Positions 1,931 through 24,532 of a stretch of DNA of 28,031 bases are shown here, piece by piece. The notes under the pieces were generated by a model. That model made no database searches, was not told the origin of the DNA, and saw only the letters and a list, made by a program, of their open reading frames with translations. Numbering within the stretch: position 1 is the stretch's first letter; every line of letters begins with the position of its first letter. Origin of the DNA: a virus (Duplodnaviria > Heunggongvirae > Uroviricota > Caudoviricetes); the IMG/VR virus record IMGVR_UViG_2740892212_000023; one strand, 5' to 3'. The position numbers were made by a program, and so were the translations under genes.

Positions 1931-2115
1931 ACGCCACAATTCAAACGATACCAGAGCTTCTTATCCAGACACGAGGCAATCAGACCGAAGTGGCGAGGAT
2001 GCTTTCCTGTGCAAGAGGAACAGTGCTCAAGTACAACCGAGACAGCAAAGGCGAGCGTCACGTAATAGTTAACGGCGTCCTGATGGTCAAACAGGGCAAG
2101 AGGGGAAGACGATGA
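1927..2115 (+). CDS. ninH: NinH protein
   Basis: 62-aa product …TIPELLIQTRGNQTEVARMLSCARGTVLKYNRD… resembles lambda NinH (helix-turn-helix-like). Confidence 0.75.
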   Translation: MNATIQTIPELLIQTRGNQTEVARMLSCARGTVLKYNRDSKGERHVIVNGVLMVKQGKRGRR

Positions 2116-2735
2116 GACTCGAAAGCGTAGCTAAATTTCATTCGCCAAAAAGCCCGATGATGAGCGACTCACCACGGGCTACGGCTTCTGACTCTCTTTC
2201 CGGTACTGATGTGATGGCTGCTATGGGGATGGCGCAATCACAAGCCGGATTCGGAATGGCTGCATTCTGCGGTAAGCATGAACTCAGCCAGAACGACAAA
2301 CAAAAGGCTATCAACTATCTGATGCAATTTGCACACAAGGTATCGGGGAAATACCGTGGTGTGGCAAAGCTTGAAGGAAATACTAAGGCAAAGGTACTGC
2401 AAGTGCTCGCAACATTCGCTTATGCGGATTATTGCCGTAGTGCCGCGACGCCGGGCGCAAGATGCAGAGATTGCCACGGTACAGGTCGGGCGGTTGATAT
2501 TGCCAAAACAGAGCAGTGGGGGAGAGTTGTTGAGAAAGAGTGCGGAAGATGCAAAGGTGTCGGCTATTCAAGAATGCCAGCAAGCGCCGCATATCGCGCT
2601 GTAACGATGCTAATCCCAAACCTTACTCAACCCACCTGGTCACGCACTGTTAAGCCTCTGTATGACGCTCTGGTGGTGCAATGCCACAAAGAAGAGTCAA
2701 TCGCAGACAACATTTTGAATGCGGTCACACGTTAG
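2112..2735 (+). CDS. Q: Late-gene antiterminator Q (lambda-type)
   Basis: 207-aa product that I recognise as essentially identical to lambda Q (MRLESVAKFHSPKSPMMSDSP…CRDCHGTGRAVD…CGRCKGVGYS…). Followed by the lambda pR' promoter sequence. Confidence 0.95.
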   Translation: MRLESVAKFHSPKSPMMSDSPRATASDSLSGTDVMAAMGMAQSQAGFGMAAFCGKHELSQNDKQKAINYLMQFAHKVSGKYRGVAKLEGNTKAKVLQVLATFAYADYCRSAATPGARCRDCHGTGRAVDIAKTEQWGRVVEKECGRCKGVGYSRMPASAAYRAVTMLIPNLTQPTWSRTVKPLYDALVVQCHKEESIADNILNAVTR

Positions 2736-2777: not shown

Positions 2778-2818
2778 TTGACTTATTGAATAAAATTGGG
2801 TAAATTTGACTCAAGAAT
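2778..2818 (+). promoter_or_regulatory. Late promoter pR' with qut-like initial transcribed region
   Basis: -35 TTGACT (2778-2783), 17-bp spacer, -10 TAAATT (2801-2806), matching lambda pR' as I recall it. The predicted +1 to +6 segment is AAGAAT (lambda: AACGAT), so a -10-like pause element is retained although the downstream sequence is new. Confidence 0.75.
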
Positions 2819-2877
2819 GGCAGATTTATATCCGTTCACATTCTTTCAGTTTTTACCCACCTCATCTTTAAGTTCTA

Positions 2878-2990
2878 AGCGCACTGACATGCGCATCATA
2901 AACTCGAGAGCACATAGGAATAGAGCCTGAGAAATATCGCTTTTGGCGACTTCTCTCGTGGTGATATTTCTATGTCAGCAGGCTCTAATA
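2878..2990 (+). repeat. Copy A of a duplicated ~110-nt leader element with conserved interleaved inverted repeats
   Basis: Shares the blocks AGCGCA…GCGCAT…CGAGAGC…GAGCCTGAGAAAT…GGCGAC.TCTCTCG…TTTCT.TG…CAGGCTC with 5518-5624. Lies directly upstream of the HNH gene start. Confidence 0.65.
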
Positions 2991-3006
2991 TCTATGTGGT
3001 TCGCCT

Positions 3007-3497
3007 ATGTTAAAACGTGAAGATGCATTGAGACTTTTTAATTACAATCCAGATACTGGAATTCTTACATGGAAGAATCCACCTCGGTCTTCTAGATTTA
3101 TCTATGGCGCTGTTGCTGGCTATAAACAAATGGATATCTGCAGGTAAAACTTTATGGAATGCGGCTATATGTCCATAGAATTGCATGGCTGATGGTTTAC
3201 AATGATTGGCCAACCGATGTGATTGACTATATTAATGGTGATAGGTCTGATAACCGGATAGCCAATCTTCGTGTTGTTACTAACACTCAAAACTCATGGA
3301 ACAGCAAGATGAGGAAAAACAATTCATCTGGTGTGAAGGGGGTGACTTTTAATTCTGCTGCAAACAAGTGGGTTGGAAGAATTAGGGTCAATGGTAAAAG
3401 GATTCATGTAGGGTGTTTTGACGATATCGAGGAGGCGAGAAAGGCAATGGAAAATGCCAGGATAAAATATCATGGTGAATTCTCCAGTATGGGATAG
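3007..3497 (+). pseudogene. HNH (HNH_3-type) homing endonuclease with C-terminal AP2 domain, interrupted by an apparent -1 frameshift
   Basis: N-terminal part in frame 1 (3007..3147: MLKREDALRLFNYNPDTGILTWKN…AVAGYKQMDICR*). The remainder is in frame 3 from 3126 (TNGYLQVKLYGMRLYVHRIAWLMVYNDWP…IDYINGDRSDNRIANLR…GVKGVTF…KWVGRIRVNGKRIHVGCFDDIEEA…YHGEF, to 3497). The frames switch inside the A-run at 3128-3130. The HNH signature reads DYINGD where the family normally has DHINGD. Confidence 0.7.
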
Positions 3498-3628
3498 ATG
3501 GGTTAATTCGCTCGTTGTGGTAGTGAGATGAAAAGAGGCGGCGCTTACTACCGATTCCGCCTAGTTGGTCACTTCGACGTATCGTCTGGAACTCCAACCA
3601 TCGCAGGCTGAGAGGTCTGTAAAATGCA

Positions 3629-3690: not shown

Positions 3691-3765
3691 GGGTCAGTCG
3701 TATAAAGGTCATTACGGAAGGCTGTTAACCTTCTTATCGTGGTTCGAGTCCACGCTGTCCCGCCA
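3691..3765 (+). tRNA. Candidate tRNA-Asn (anticodon GTT), possibly degenerate
   Basis: Hand-folded cloverleaf: acceptor GGGTCAG/CTGTCCC (one T·T mismatch), anticodon stem GAAGG/CCTTC with loop CTGTTAA, T-arm CGTGG-TTCGAGT-CCACG, discriminator G and encoded CCA. The D-stem is weak. Confidence 0.45.
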
Positions 3766-3770
3766 AATAT

Positions 3771-3846
3771 GCTGGTTTAGCTCCAATGGTAGAGCAGTCG
3801 CCTTGTAAGCGAATGGGTAGCGGTTCAAGTCCGTTAACCAGCACCA
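3771..3846 (+). tRNA. Candidate tRNA-Thr (anticodon TGT)
   Basis: Hand-folded cloverleaf: perfect 7-bp acceptor GCTGGTT/AACCAGC, D-arm GCTC-CAATGGTA-GAGC, anticodon loop CTTGTAA, T-arm AGCGG-TTCAAGT-CCGTT, discriminator A and encoded CCA. Confidence 0.65.
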
Positions 3847-4088: not shown

Positions 4089-4412
4089 ATGAAGATGCCA
4101 GAAAAACATGACCTGTTAGCCGCCATTCTCGCGGCAAAGGAACAAGGCATCGGGGCAATCCTTGCGTTTGCAATGGCGTACCTTCGCGGCAGGTATAATG
4201 GCGGTGCGTTTACAAAAACAGTAATCGACGCAACGATGTGCGCCATTATCGCCTGGTTCATTCGTGACCTTCTCGACTTCGCCGGACTAAGTAGCAATCT
4301 TGCTTATATAACGAGCGTGTTTATCGGCTACATCGGTACTGACTCGATTGGTTCGCTTATCAAACGCTTCGCTGCTAAAAAAGCCGGAGTAGAAGATGGT
4401 GGAAATCAATAA
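4089..4412 (+). CDS. S: Holin S (class I, lambda-type, with dual-start motif MKMPEK)
   Basis: 107-aa product that I recognise as essentially identical to lambda S. The Met1-Lys2-Met3 dual-start arrangement for antiholin/holin is preserved. Confidence 0.95.
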
Positions 4413-4872
4413 TCAACGTAAGGCGTTCCTCGATATGCTGGCGTGGTCAGAGGGAACTGATAACGGACGTCAGAAAACCAGAAATCATGGTTATGACGTC
4501 ATTGTTGGCGGAGAGCTATTCACTGATTACTCCGATCACCCTCGCAAACTTGTCACGCTAAACCCAAAACTCAAATCAACAGCCGCCGGACGTTACCAGC
4601 TTCTTTCCCGTTGGTGGGATGCCTATCGTAAGCAGCTTGGCCTGAAAGACTTCTCTCCGAAAAGCCAGGACGCTGTGGCATTGCAGCAGATTAAAGAACG
4701 TGGCGCTTTACCGATGATTGATCGTGGTGATATTCGTCAGGCTATCGACCGTTGCAGCAATATCTGGGCTTCGTTGCCGGGCGCTGGTTACGGTCAGTTC
4801 GAGCATAAGGCTGACAGCCTGATTGCAAAATTCAAAGAAGCGGGCGGAAAGGTCAGAGAGATTGAGGTATGA
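4396..4872 (+). CDS. R: Endolysin R (lambda-type lytic transglycosylase)
   Basis: 158-aa product matching lambda R from memory ([26 protein letters not shown]…). Overlaps the S stop. Confidence 0.95.
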
Positions 4873-5306
4873 GCAGAGTAACCGCGATTATCTCCGCTCT
4901 GGTTATCTGCATCATCGTCGGCCTGTCATGGGCTGTTAATCATTACCGTGATAACGCCATTGCCTACAAAGAGCAGCGCGATAAAGCCACATCCACAATC
5001 GCTGACATGCAGAAGCGTCAACGTGATGTAGCAGAACTCGACGCAAGATATACAAAGGAACTTGCTGATGCTAACGCGACTATCGAAAGTCTCCGTGCTG
5101 ATGTTTCTGCTGGGCGTAAGCGCCTGCAAGTCGCCGCCATCTGTGCAAAGTCAACGACCGGAGCCAGCAGCATGGGCGATGGAGAAAGCCCAAGACTTAC
5201 AGCAGATGCTGAACTCAATTATTACCGTCTCCGAAGTGGAATCGACAGGATAACCGCGCAGGTTAACTACCTGCAGGAATACATCAGGACGCAATGCCTT
5301 CGATGA
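4869..5306 (+). CDS. Rz: Spanin Rz (i-spanin); N-terminus lambda-like, remainder divergent
   Basis: 145 aa. The first ~30 residues ([17 protein letters not shown]…NHYRDNAI) match lambda Rz, after which the sequence diverges. N-terminal TM helix plus coiled-coil character. Confidence 0.85.
5062..5253 (+). CDS. Rz1: Spanin Rz1 (o-spanin lipoprotein) embedded in the +1 frame of Rz
   Basis: ORF wholly inside Rz in another frame. Signal-peptide-like N-terminus with lipobox-like LGVSAC and a Pro-rich mature region. The exact start is uncertain. Confidence 0.65.
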
Positions 5307-5479
5307 TAGCGATAATTTTACTCATCATCCTTCACATCTGGCTCTGTAGACAGGGTGGTGATCACTTCTGGAGTAAATCCAGATTAAACATCTCATTGCT
5401 GATGCTTGATATTGAGCATCTGGCGCGCGGTAAGGGGCTGCGTTGAGATAAGAGCCAGTCATCACAAACACCAGGATTT

Positions 5480-5505
5480 AGCCCCGCATTCGCGGGGCTT
5501 TTTAT
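5480..5505 (+). terminator. Rho-independent terminator downstream of the lysis cassette
   Basis: Hairpin AGCCCCGC-ATTC-GCGGGGCT followed by TTTTTAT. Confidence 0.7.
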
Positions 5506-5517
5506 ATCTTAATTTCA

Positions 5518-5624
5518 CAGCGCATCTCACGCGCATATTAACGAGAGCCTTTCAGTAAGCGAGCCTGAGAAATGCCGTTATAGGTGGCGACCTCTCTCGG
5601 GCGGCTTTTCTGTGAGACAGGCTC
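5518..5624 (+). repeat. Copy B of the duplicated leader element, upstream of rha
   Basis: Same conserved blocks in the same order as 2878-2990, lying between the post-lysis terminator and the rha start codon. Confidence 0.65.
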
Positions 5625-5647
5625 ACTTTCTAAAAGGTAAAGACGCT

Positions 5648-6166
5648 ATGAATCATCAATTGGCTAATCTCGATTTCCGGGACATGGTGGTTGTTTCTGG
5701 TGATCGCGTGATCACAACCTCCCGCAAGGTAGCAGCTTACTTCGACAAGCAGCATCACCACATCATTCAGAAAATCGAAAAGCTAGACTGTTCGGATGAA
5801 TTTCTAACCAGCAACTTTTCGCGGGTTACCTATGAACACAAGGGTAATCAGTATGTTGAATATGAAATTTCCAAAGACGGCGCGATGTACATCATCATGT
5901 CGTTTACCGGAAAAAAAGCTGCCGCCATCAAAGAGGCGTTTATCAAAGCATTTAATTGGATGCGTGACAGGCTGATGGAGATGGCTCACTCATACCAAAG
6001 AGAGCACAACGAGTTAATGCTGGAGTTCATGAAGGAAAAGGATGTTGCCAGTATGTCAGGACGCTTGCTGAACCGCTGGGGCAGGATCAAAAAACCGCAA
6101 CTCATAGCAAGAATCGAAAGGCTTGAGCAGCAGGCGCAAATATCGATCCCCGGACTGCCAAAGTGA
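5648..6166 (+). CDS. rha: Phage regulatory protein Rha (P22 orf201-like)
   Basis: Rha-family N-terminal motif (…VVVSGDRVITTSRKVAAYFDKQHHHIIQKIEKL…). ATG 5648 is preceded by AAAGG; the ORF track's GTG 5612 extension is probably not translated. Same position as rha in P22. Confidence 0.8.
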   Translation: MNHQLANLDFRDMVVVSGDRVITTSRKVAAYFDKQHHHIIQKIEKLDCSDEFLTSNFSRVTYEHKGNQYVEYEISKDGAMYIIMSFTGKKAAAIKEAFIKAFNWMRDRLMEMAHSYQREHNELMLEFMKEKDVASMSGRLLNRWGRIKKPQLIARIERLEQQAQISIPGLPK

Positions 6167-11768: not shown

Positions 11769-13022
11769 ATGGCTAACCAATTAGCAAAAGACCTTGAAAT
11801 CATGTTCGAAAACTACGTTGAAGGCTTTGAGGCCGCCTGCGTAGTTTCCCGTAACGCTAAAAAATTCCGTCCCGGTGATACTGCAATGCAGCGAGCAGGC
11901 GATGTTCTGTATCGTCCGCAGCATTACCACATGAACATTGAGGAAGGCCTCGATCTCAGCAGCAAAACGCCAACAGCACTGGTTCAGCGCCTTGTTCCTT
12001 CAGTGTTCAAGGAGCCGAAAAACATTCTGTACACTCTGGATGCGCGTGAAATGCGTGACCCGGAACATAAAACTGAAGCTGGTCGCGCCGCAGGTATGCG
12101 CCTTGCTGCACAGATTGACTCTGACCTGATTTCCATGGTCACGCAGCGTGCTACTAACGTGATCACAATGGCTGACTCAACCACTGGTTCACAGGGCCGT
12201 GATTTGTGGAACTGTGCGGCAGGTATTGATGCCACCATGACGGCGATTGGTGTACCACAGGGTATCAACCGCCGCTCTTTCTGGAACCCCTTCAACTACA
12301 AAGACCTTGCTGGCGAGCTTGGTCACCGTGCCTATGCTCAGGGCGCAACCCTGACAGCATACGAAAAAGCGCAGATCCCTCCGGTTGCGTCCTTCGATAG
12401 CTACAAGACCGATATTTCCGGTCGTGTTCCGAAGGGTACAGCAACTTCCATTACGCTGGCAGCAGCACCTGCGCACAAGGTTGAAGCGAAAGATGCTAAC
12501 GATATGCCAGTGGATAACCGACAGGGGACTATTACGGTATCTGCATCTGGGTTGCAGGTTGGCGATGCGTTCACCATTGCTGGCGTGAATTCTGTACACC
12601 AGATCACCAAAGACACCACCGGGCAGCCGCAGGTATTCCGCGTTCTGGCAGTAAGCGGAACGACAGTAACTATCTCCCCGAAAATTCTGCCGCCTGACAA
12701 CGCAGATGTCGCCAGCCGTCCATATGCAAACGTTGATGCTAACGCGGCAAATGGTGCAGCAATTACCATTCTCAACAAGAATGCCGCACCGGCTAACCTG
12801 TTCTGGGCTGATGGTTCTGTTGAGCTGATGTACGGCAAACTGGCGTTCCCGACTGGTCAGGGTCCACAGGTAATGACAGCAACCACCGAGCAGGGCGCTA
12901 CGCTGATCATGTCTTACGCCTTCGACCACATCAAAGGCGTAACCACTGCTCGTTTCACCACTCTGTACGGTTGCTCTGTACTTGTTCCTGAATATACGGG
13001 CATCGTTATTGCCGGGCAGTAA
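11769..13022 (+). CDS. Major capsid (coat) protein (P22 gp5 family)
   Basis: 417 aa, immediately after the scaffold gene, size and position of the P22-like coat protein. Followed by a GC hairpin and T-run at 13030-13050. Confidence 0.85.
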   Translation: MANQLAKDLEIMFENYVEGFEAACVVSRNAKKFRPGDTAMQRAGDVLYRPQHYHMNIEEGLDLSSKTPTALVQRLVPSVFKEPKNILYTLDAREMRDPEHKTEAGRAAGMRLAAQIDSDLISMVTQRATNVITMADSTTGSQGRDLWNCAAGIDATMTAIGVPQGINRRSFWNPFNYKDLAGELGHRAYAQGATLTAYEKAQIPPVASFDSYKTDISGRVPKGTATSITLAAAPAHKVEAKDANDMPVDNRQGTITVSASGLQVGDAFTIAGVNSVHQITKDTTGQPQVFRVLAVSGTTVTISPKILPPDNADVASRPYANVDANAANGAAITILNKNAAPANLFWADGSVELMYGKLAFPTGQGPQVMTATTEQGATLIMSYAFDHIKGVTTARFTTLYGCSVLVPEYTGIVIAGQ

Positions 13023-13063
13023 TTTTGGTGGGGCTTCGGCCCCATTTTTATTGGGAGAAGACA

Positions 13064-13252
13064 ATGGCACGAACAATGCTCTATAAGCCTGGCAACATGA
13101 TCACCTGTGGTCAGTTTGCTGTCGATTACATCATTGTTGATGACGAAGAAGTTAAATCTCACCTGAAAAAAGGCTGGGTAAAAACTCCTGAAGAAACCGC
13201 AGCGAAGCAAAAAGTGGCTAAGGCGGAAGAAGATGGCGAAAACGAAGGGTGA
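13064..13252 (+). CDS. Small hypothetical protein
   Basis: ATG 13064 preceded by GGGAGAAG, within ORF 13025..13252. Overlaps the start of the gp4-like gene. No motif. Confidence 0.4.
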   Translation: MARTMLYKPGNMITCGQFAVDYIIVDDEEVKSHLKKGWVKTPEETAAKQKVAKAEEDGENEG

Positions 13253-23391: not shown

Positions 23392-23591
23392 GTAAAGAAT
23401 GTTGTTTCTGCGGCATTAGCGAATCAGACGCTGATCAAACATACATTTACTCTAAAGAAACAGGTCGGATGCTGTGTAGTGACTGCGTGTTGGACATCAT
23501 AAGATACAAGCATCTTGGATGTTCTGCCAGCATTAGCAATATAGGTGAAGTATATGAAGGGAAAGATATAACTGATAGAGCAGAAAGTTGA
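23388..23591 (+). CDS. Small Cys-rich protein (putative zinc ribbon), 67 aa
   Basis: Two CxxC pairs (CCFCG…CSDC). ATG 23388 overlaps the stop of the reconstructed arc frame. P22 has no gene between arc and ant. Confidence 0.45.
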   Translation: MSKECCFCGISESDADQTYIYSKETGRMLCSDCVLDIIRYKHLGCSASISNIGEVYEGKDITDRAES

Positions 23592-23653
23592 AGCCCCAAC
23601 TGCGGTAACAGTCAGGGCTTCGGTATCAACAAATCGTCTTAGGAAATATTGAC

Positions 23654-24532
23654 ATGAAAAGTATAGCAAAGGCACAAAACGATTTCACCATCTTCAAATT
23701 CGGCGACAGTGAAATCCGCGTCATCAACAAGTGCGGTGAGCCGTGGTTTGTAGCTAAAGATGTTTGTGATGCTTTAGCTTTGACTAACTCACGCAAGGCG
23801 CTTACTGCACTTGATGACGATGAAAAGGGAGTAACTTTAAGTTACACCCTTGGTGGTGAGCAGAATCTAAGCATTGTGAGCGAATCAGGTATGTATACAT
23901 TGGTTCTGCGCTGCCGCGATGCAGTCAATAAAGGTTCAGTCCCGCACAAATTCCGCAAGTGGGTAACAGCAGAAGTTCTGCCTTCAATTCGCAAACATGG
24001 CGAGTATGTTAAAGGAAAGAAAACCACTGTTGAGGAAAGAACACCGCTACGCGATGCAGTAAACATGCTGGTAGGAAAGAAAGGACTTCGCTATGACGAT
24101 GCATACAATATGGTTCATCAGCGTTTTGGTATTGACAGCATTGATGAACTTTCAATTGAACAAATCCCGCAAGCTGTAGAGTACATCCACAGGGTAGTGC
24201 TTGAAGGTGAGTTCATCGGCAAACAAGAGAAGAAAACCAACGAGCTTTCTGCAAAAGAAGCAAACAGCCTTGTATGGTTATGGGATTATGCCAACCGCTC
24301 ACAGGCATTATTCCGCGAACTGTATCTGGCATTAAAACAAATTCAATCGAACTATTCCGGCAGATGCTACGACTACGGTTATGAGTTCTCGTATGTTATC
24401 GGAATGGCGAGAGATGTTTTAATCAACCATACACGAGATGTTGATATTAATGAGCCAGACGGACCAACGAATCTTTCCGCATGGATGAGACTTAAGAATA
24501 AAGAATTACCTCCTTCAGTACATAACTACTGA
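23654..24532 (+). CDS. ant: Antirepressor Ant (Bro-N-type N-terminal domain)
   Basis: 292 aa with …[32 protein letters not shown]…[16 protein letters not shown]…[18 protein letters not shown]…, the Bro-N/Ant signature, in the P22 ant position. Confidence 0.85.

Follow-up and report, generated by a model that had tools for sequence, protein, structure and literature searches.

A conserved pseudoknotted RNA leader in front of exchangeable cassette genes in phage late operons

The window (the whole stretch of 28,031 nt that was analysed) is the late region of an E. coli prophage of the P22-like type (Lederbergvirus; HK620/CUS-3-like) and carries two copies of an RNA leader of ~ 130 nt that folds into five or six helices, namely P0, S4, S2, S3, S1 and likely PK2. 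Copy B precedes the rha gene while copy A precedes an HNH endonuclease gene. Given that the Shine-Dalgarno (SD) sequence lies inside S4 and the AUG inside PK2, both are base-paired. We consider it probable that the leader is a cis-acting element of the late mRNA which controls, and probably represses, the translation of whatever gene occupies a swappable cassette slot.

A preliminary description of this DNA had reported two interleaved inverted repeats upstream of rha, CGAGAG with CTCTCG and GAGCCTG with CAGGCTC. Both are found at the claimed sites, where they correspond to the arms of S1 and S2 in copy B (Table 1), and their location between the post-lysis terminator and the rha ATG is borne out. 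Two short repeats alone could be due to chance, but these are not, since they are conserved with compensatory changes in relatives. The span assigned to the element, 5518-5624, was too short, as the fold extends from 5520 to the end of the AUG at 5650 and contains three or four helices beyond the two first noticed, including those that pair the SD sequence and the start codon. The proposed second copy is real, with matching arm pairs for S1 and S2 in copy A. On the covariance model, copy B scores 135 bits (E = 4e-32) and copy A 70 bits (E = 5e-16), although both copies belong to the seed alignment of the model and these scores hence express consistency, not independent detection; the rest of the 28 kb window gives no score above 20 bits. 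Plain pairwise alignment of copy A with copy B reaches only 78% identity per column and is partly misregistered, and blastn of copy A against phages returned no match. Copy A is indeed too diverged for blastn and is tied to copy B via the covariance model only. A structure-aware alignment reproduces the similarity on the HNH side, and the element is not specific to rha, so that neither of the two doubts raised at the outset, a spurious HNH-side similarity and ordinary conserved sequence upstream of rha, holds.

Table 1. Features of the window and helices of the two leader copies (helices as 5' arm / 3' arm, positions of the window)
Feature	Position	Strand	Sequence or remark
Q	2112-2735		lambda-type
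Late promoter PR'	2778-2806	+	
Copy A + HNH cassette insert	~2817-3498		3' of PR', 5' of lambda-like 6S/tR' sequence
Copy A leader	2879-3009	+	covariance model 70 bits
P0, copy A	2879-83 / 2890-94		
S1, copy A	2905-10 / 2953-58		
S4, copy A	2911-17 / 2992-98		CACAUAG / CUAUGUG
S2, copy A	2923-29 / 2979-85		
S3, copy A	2930-39 / 2962-71		AGAAAUAUCG / UGAUAUUUCU
Bulge, copy A	2972-78		
PK2 (likely), copy A	2945-49 / 3001-05		GGCGA / UCGCC, perfect 5 bp
AUG, copy A	3007-09		
HNH_3+AP2 endonuclease gene	3007-3497	+	client gene of copy A; frameshifted
tRNA-Asn(GTT), tRNA-Thr(TGT)	3691-3765, 3771-3846		late leader, 3' of tR'
Lysis genes	4089-5446		
Intrinsic terminator	5480-5505 (hairpin 5480-5499)	+	AGCCCCGC-ATTC-GCGGGGCT plus T-run; terminator scan
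Copy B leader	5520-5650	+	between terminator and rha
P0 hairpin, copy B	5520-23 / 5531-34	+	GCGC / GCGC, 7-nt loop
S1 pseudoknot, copy B	5542-5547 / 5594-5599	+	CGAGAG / CUCUCG; apical loop to 6 nt directly 5' of S4
S4, copy B	5548-5555 / 5630-5637	+	anti-SD CCUUUCAG / CUAAAAGG; minimum-energy folds, double changes
S2, copy B	5561-5567 / 5618-5624	+	GAGCCUG / CAGGCUC
S3, copy B	5568-5577 / 5602-5611	+	AGAAAUGCCG / CGGCUUUUCU; one U.U mismatch
Apical loop, copy B	5578-5601	+	houses PK2 arm, S1 3' arm and invariant GG 5600-5601
Optional mini-hairpin	5583-5592	+	GGU-GGCG-ACC, inside apical loop
Bulge, copy B	5612-5617	+	GUGAGA, 6 nt, conserved, between S3 and S2; consensus G-U/G-G-N-G/A-A (alignments)
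PK2 (likely), copy B	5584-5589 / 5644-5649	+	GUGGCG / CGCUAU; 3' arm overlaps rha AUG 5648-5650
rha ORF	5648-6166	+	172 aa; Phage_pRha + ORF11CD3; client gene of copy B
DUF2560, then terminase genes			3' of rha

The segments of the leader follow one another in the order S1a-S4a-S2a-S3a-PK2a-S1b-S3b-S2b-S4b-PK2b, hence S1 and PK2 both cross the S4/S2/S3 hairpin. The nested helices were recovered unguided by RNAalifold and by single-sequence folding; indeed, the minimum-energy folds of the two copies independently give P0, S4, S2 and S3, with z = -2.8 for copy B and -4.3 for copy A. Because S1a and S4a are contiguous, S1 is able to stack coaxially on S4, and in such a model the two can form a single helix of ~ 14 bp lying beside the S2/S3 arm of ~ 17 bp. 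The joints of this stacked model would be a 5x5 internal loop at one end and the GG at the other, with PK2 emerging at the nick.

The structured leader announced by the preliminary description is strongly supported, given that every helix covaries and that the interleaved repeats form a true pseudoknot. Over 46 distinct sequences, 85.4% of the cells are paired compared to 76.5% in shuffles and 24-50% in controls with slid partners, and changes on both sides are seen in 28 of 35 pairs. None of 500 shuffles reaches any of these measures, these counts not being probabilities since the sequences are related. Compensatory changes were observed in all helices across ~ 45 distinct relatives. P0 is paired in 100% of cases with double changes in three of its four pairs (GCGU/ACGC, GUGC/GCAC, UGCA/UGCA and GCGCC/GGCGC), S2 is 94% paired with compensatory changes in six of seven pairs, and S3 is 88% paired with compensatory changes in eight of ten.

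For S1, counts over fixed columns of MAFFT and model alignments gave only 56-60% of pairing; as the register of S1 shifts by 1 nt between classes, they were replaced by an analysis of each sequence separately. In this analysis a perfect helix of 5-7 bp is present in all 34 representatives with at least nine different arm sequences, each with its exact complement (CGAGAG, CCCGAG, CUCAGAA, CACAGAA, CCAAGAA, CACAGAG, UCAGAA, GAAAG and ACCCGAG), and further copies show the arms CGCAGAG, CCACCGA, CAAGAG and CCUAGAG. The geometry of S1 is constant as well, with 0 nt separating it from S4 in 32 of the 34 and two nucleotides, the invariant GG, separating it from S3.

S4 is 82-99% paired with double changes in seven of its eight pairs, and its variants include CCUUUCAG/CUAAAAGG of copy B, CUACAG/CUAUAG, UCUUAG/CUAAGG and CUUUG/CAAAG. 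The pattern used for the IMG/VR search fixed both S4 arms and most relatives were fetched by that pattern, so that the S4 covariation rests on few sequences (copy A, L006, L053:68, L079:341, L021:2651, L029:2185 and P22), all found by blast or by the covariance model. A C.A mismatch in S4 (5553.5632) is kept in 40 of the 46 distinct sequences, a standard pair being present in four and C.U in two; it could serve to weaken the helix at this point or act as a C.A+ wobble that responds to pH.

PK2 is likely a second pseudoknot. When the loop of each sequence was compared with its own spacer, the mean best helix was 5.45 bp, against 3.85 +/- 0.13 for shuffled spacers (~ 12 SD above shuffles) and 4.24 across classes. 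Matched variants are GGCGA:UCGCC in copy A, UGGCG:CGCCA in P22, GUCGGU:ACCGAU, GUCGGA:UCCGAU, AUCGGUG:CACUGAU and CAUCGCU:AGCGAUG. Furthermore, a swap of U-A to A-U distinguishes UCGG(U):(A)CCGA from UCGG(A):(U)CCGA with counts of 9:0 and 1:9 (Fisher p = 1e-4, counted among distinct sequences and uncorrected for phylogeny). The pairing is weak or absent in L005, L081, L018, L104:567 and L029:2185. Both S1 and PK2 pair a loop with a strand outside the hairpin and do so with compensatory changes, as expected of pseudoknots of the HLout or H-type.

Setting aside the conserved C.A of S4, G.U-type pairs outnumber A.C-type pairs by 30 to 6. This excess identifies the RNA of the + strand as the folded molecule; the covariance model gives 20 bits on the reverse strand compared to 135 bits on the forward one.

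With regard to the start region, the 3' arm of S4 holds the Shine-Dalgarno sequence AAGG of rha in copy B, and AAGG or AGGA is found in this arm 7-12 nt 5' of the ATG in every class. An anti-SD further 5' thus pairs with the SD, and covariation maintains this helix, as in SD-sequestering leaders. In P22 (L250, NC_002371; leader 2003-2147), rha is annotated with 201 aa from a GTG at locus position 2076, record position 39575, inside the apical loop of the leader. Both the alignment of the leader and the N-terminus MNELIANHDFDFRQLV favour the ATG at locus position 2146 (record ~ 39645) as the true start. Several other records of phages show 'hypothetical proteins' that span the leader.

A scan for sigma-70 promoters found none within or near either copy, and no -10 box is preserved from class to class between P0 and S1. 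An intrinsic terminator lies at most ~ 20 nt 5' of P0 in 78 of 90 distinct contexts. It is homologous across most relatives (GCCTCGC-loop-GCGGGGC and T6, followed by TATATCTG; corresponding positions in L001-L129), and terminator and leader seem to travel as one module. A reading as a moron with its own promoter was rejected since there is no sigma-70 promoter and no conserved -10, and since the terminator is upstream and not downstream. Given this strong upstream terminator and the lack of a promoter, copy B should be reached only by a terminator-resistant, Q-modified polymerase reading through it in late transcription. Copy A, ~ 70 nt 3' of the PR' start and 5' of tR', would be transcribed from PR' itself.

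Relatives of copy B were matched by blastn in 159 phage records, among them HK620, phi80, HK106, HK639, CUS-3, epsilon34, SPN3UB and Stx1a/Stx2a phages as well as phages of Klebsiella, Enterobacter, Hafnia, Citrobacter and Providencia. Copies are present in 955 of 5426 complete E. coli genomes (~ 18%, roughly one in six), including the phi80 remnant of DH5alpha, and none of these genome copies carries an RNA annotation. The pattern scan of IMG/VR supplied 120 more loci, and the covariance model then added more diverged copies in some IMG/VR loci and in P22. A scan of 596 Gb of contigs (17 specified bases, 30-nt variable gap) yielded real loci in only three of 120 cases (L174 from Raoultella, L222 and L239); nearly all of its matches being due to chance, the host range is taken from the searches of phages and of E. 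coli. Locus L079 contains copies at 341-465 and at 13001-13137, the second ~ 12.5 kb further along the late operon and before a KilA-N gene, so that the leader is not confined to the post-lysis slot.

Homology between relatives ends at the ATG, and leaders that are often 99-100% identical precede unrelated ORFs that fall into at least six Pfam families, which supports the earlier suggestion of cassettes sharing a common 5' end. The families are Phage_pRha (with or without ORF11CD3), KilA-N (with or without ORF11CD3 or P63C), AntA, P22_AR_N with ORF11CD3, T5orf172/MUG113 (GIY-YIG-like) and HNH_3 with AP2, while two client ORFs have no Pfam family. Clients of the Rha, KilA-N and P22_AR_N types share a C-terminal ORF11CD3 module of ~ 50 aa (...MSGRLLNRWG...IPGLP) that sits behind different N-terminal DNA-binding domains. 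Tandem units of terminator, leader and ORF occur in L003, L021/L024/L094, L029, L104 and L239.

The HNH genes bring their own leader, as seen for copy A at PR', for L053:68-198 and for Dewey (L009). In Dewey (L009 837-1537) and in L100, an HNH cassette with its own class-2 leader has taken the place of the initial ~ 100 nt in a class-1 leader, and the junction lies at GAGACAGG. The HNH ORF ends inside the leader remnant (...GACAGGCTCACTTTCTAA), and the next gene accordingly retains only the SD half of S4. Copy A and its HNH gene are inserted at PR' in 16 of the 5426 complete E. coli genomes. The insert is flanked by TTGACTCAA and GATGGGTTAATTCG, both part of the lambda-type late leader, and the insertion leaves a -10-like AAGAAT where lambda has AACGAT. 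In the window, the HNH_3+AP2 frame has lost one A (AAAA to AAA) in an A-run right after GGCTAT, near 3124-3126, compared to an intact counterpart of 163 aa in E. coli GF131 (L004 3808-4299), and is thus either a pseudogene or affected by a sequencing error.

The leader forms a long bent S4-S2-S3 hairpin whose apical loop makes two pseudoknots, S1 joining this loop to the 6-7 nt that directly precede the hairpin and PK2, the likely second one, joining it to a stretch of 4-8 nt that runs up to or into the start codon. In this way it would set or gate the translation of the next ORF. The default state is most likely repressed, which we infer from one feature, the pairing of both SD and AUG. Furthermore, as the leader is conserved and the ORF behind it is not, the leader also serves as the 5' homology arm of the slot, in which antirepressor-like DNA-binding genes and homing-endonuclease-like genes are exchanged.

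The fold is far more elaborate than plain occlusion of the SD needs, which hints at a ligand, a protein or a processing step. It is conceivable, albeit rather unlikely, that the leader is a two-state riboregulator in which a state with S1, with or without PK2, alternates with the SD-sequestering S4 and a signal turns the cassette on. Candidates for this signal are metabolites, ions, temperature, RNA-binding proteins, cutting of the 17-bp S2-S3 arm by RNase III and a host state linked to IHF. The invariance of the GG linker and the conservation of the bulge and of the single C.A mismatch in S4 are in favour of such alternation, as is the direct adjacency of the S1 and S4 5' arms, which could make them sterically exclusive. 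However, the 0-nt junction is equally explained by coaxial stacking of S1 on S4, and the few conserved unpaired nucleotides together with an apical loop that varies from 4 to 17 nt among relatives are unlike a small-molecule aptamer. Rha of phi80 and of P22 is reported to block phage growth only in IHF-deficient hosts, and the rha genes of both phages lie behind the leader, a phenotype that would suit a responsive element. Inspection by eye of copy B and P22 for the IHF consensus (WATCAANNNNTTR) showed nothing convincing. Somewhat more doubtful is the bolder form of this idea, a signal-responsive, doubly pseudoknotted riboregulator that senses the state of host or phage and switches on the cassette, with a factor tied to IHF, RNase III or a small molecule as candidate signals. 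If true, such a leader would supply the control that has been lacking from accounts of the long-known Rha/IHF phenotype of phi80 and P22.

We regard it as very improbable that the leader acts on transcription or RNA fate, be it through put-like antitermination, as a barrier to RNases or a processing signal, or as a processed small RNA or protein sponge working in trans. It is true that the leader always lies beside a terminator and 5' of ~ 20 kb of late genes, that the intra-operon terminators in the late operons of P22-like phages have no assigned role (phage L genome paper, PMC8022706), and that copy A is located between PR' and tR', where put sites of HK022 would lie. Nevertheless, two of the helices pair the SD and the start codon and covary with the gene-specific spacer, which is unexpected for an element of transcription or stability. 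Moreover, no terminator separates the leader from the ORF, so that no discrete small RNA is apparent, and Rfam gives no match to put, c4 or other small RNAs. The put RNA of HK022 in particular, which consists of two neighbouring stem-loops shortly after a promoter in a phage without N/Q-type antiterminators, was rejected as its architecture differs from the five or six helices and pseudoknots of the leader, as this phage carries a lambda-type Q and a qut site, and as copy B follows a terminator and does not precede one, nor does it follow a promoter.

Least probable of all is conservation at the DNA level with an incidental RNA fold, the leader being a recombination or homing joint (a 'boundary sequence', as reportedly proposed for HK620 by Clark et al. 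in 2001) or the target of the HNH and GIY-YIG-like endonucleases that accompany it. In favour of this reading are the abrupt loss of homology at the ATG, the HNH cassettes that took the place of ~ 100 nt of resident leader in Dewey and L100, and the tandem terminator-leader-ORF arrays. A recombination joint, however, requires identity and not complementarity between arms 50-90 nt apart. Here five or six helices stay paired even though their arm sequences vary from one lineage to another, and the excess of G.U pairs indicates a single transcribed strand. Such a role is also compatible with an RNA function and likely its by-product instead of an alternative.

Lambda, P22, phi80, HK620 and the Stx phages have been heavily studied, and yet their late operons contain a fold of ~ 130 nt that is unannotated. 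The leader provides a testable control point for the poorly understood Rha, KilA-N, AntA, P22_AR_N, T5orf172 and HNH genes and suggests a function for orphan intra-operon terminators. Since the leader is conserved and also serves as a homology arm, it becomes clear why the slot forms a sharp joint of the mosaic. Start-codon annotation is corrected, for instance that of P22 rha, and a double pseudoknot enclosing SD and AUG is attractive for work on RNA structure and for synthetic gating of translation.

At gathering thresholds, Rfam 15 detects only sar and the two tRNAs in the whole window, and when E up to 10 was allowed both copies gave chance-level matches of at most 20 bits compared to gathering scores of 40-90. 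In the literature no description of the leader was found, including Weinberg 2017 and the genome papers of epsilon34 and phage L. Self-cleaving ribozymes (twister, pistol, hatchet, hammerhead and HDV-like) were rejected as no covariance model matched, while a group I intron fragment, a tRNA-like element and a pac or cos site were dismissed for want of model matches and because of the wrong context.

Like the morons and boundary sequences of lambdoid mosaics, the leader marks a variable, non-essential slot of the late operon with a conserved flank where modules recombine. In contrast, classical morons are preceded by a promoter of their own and followed by a terminator, whereas here the terminator is upstream, no promoter was found and the flank is a covarying RNA. 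With c4 of P1/P7 and sar of P22 the leader shares a problem, the tight post-transcriptional control of antirepressor-type genes, but those two RNAs, antisense or processed, pair between molecules while the leader is an intramolecular fold; c4 is a processed RNA of ~ 77 nt with loops complementary to duplicated a/b boxes at the ribosome-binding site of its target. The C4 and sar models gave no match for the leader at E up to 10 and no duplicated target boxes were seen. The window itself contains a full-length sar antisense RNA (23586-23652, - strand, 74.5 bits) adjoining an ant-like ORF at 23654-24532, so that the same phage also has classical RNA control of an antirepressor.

In T-even phages, simple hairpins that occlude the ribosome-binding site silence the endonuclease genes I-TevI and mobE on read-through transcripts and are relieved by a late promoter inside the structure. 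The likeness to the leader consists in a phage endonuclease gene with a paired ribosome-binding site; unlike these hairpins, the leader is a multi-helix pseudoknot, no internal promoter was found and most of its clients are not endonucleases. In the repZ (repA) leader of IncI-alpha/IncB plasmids, a loop GGCG pairs with CGCC or CGCU next to the translation start, and this pseudoknot activates translation under the control of leader-peptide translation and of an antisense RNA. Identical tetranucleotides are found in P22 (UGGCG/CGCCA) and in both copies of the window, but neither a leader peptide nor an antisense RNA is evident at the leader.

As for riboswitches, the only conserved features outside the helices are the GG linker, the 6-nt bulge and one C.A, and the clients are heterogeneous. 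The closest parallels in operation are the SD-sequestering pseudoknot leaders (preQ1-II/III and SAM-II, and the HLout type), which likewise act in cis at the 5' end, pair a loop with an outside strand and hold the ribosome-binding site in a helix. The leader differs from preQ1-II/III and SAM-II in that it has no Rfam match and no evident ligand pocket, in that it contains two pseudoknots and a paired architecture of ~ 110 nt, and in that its client genes are unrelated and do not belong to one pathway. It belongs to none of these named systems and is a new family within a known kind of element, one that would work like the known SD-sequestering leaders.
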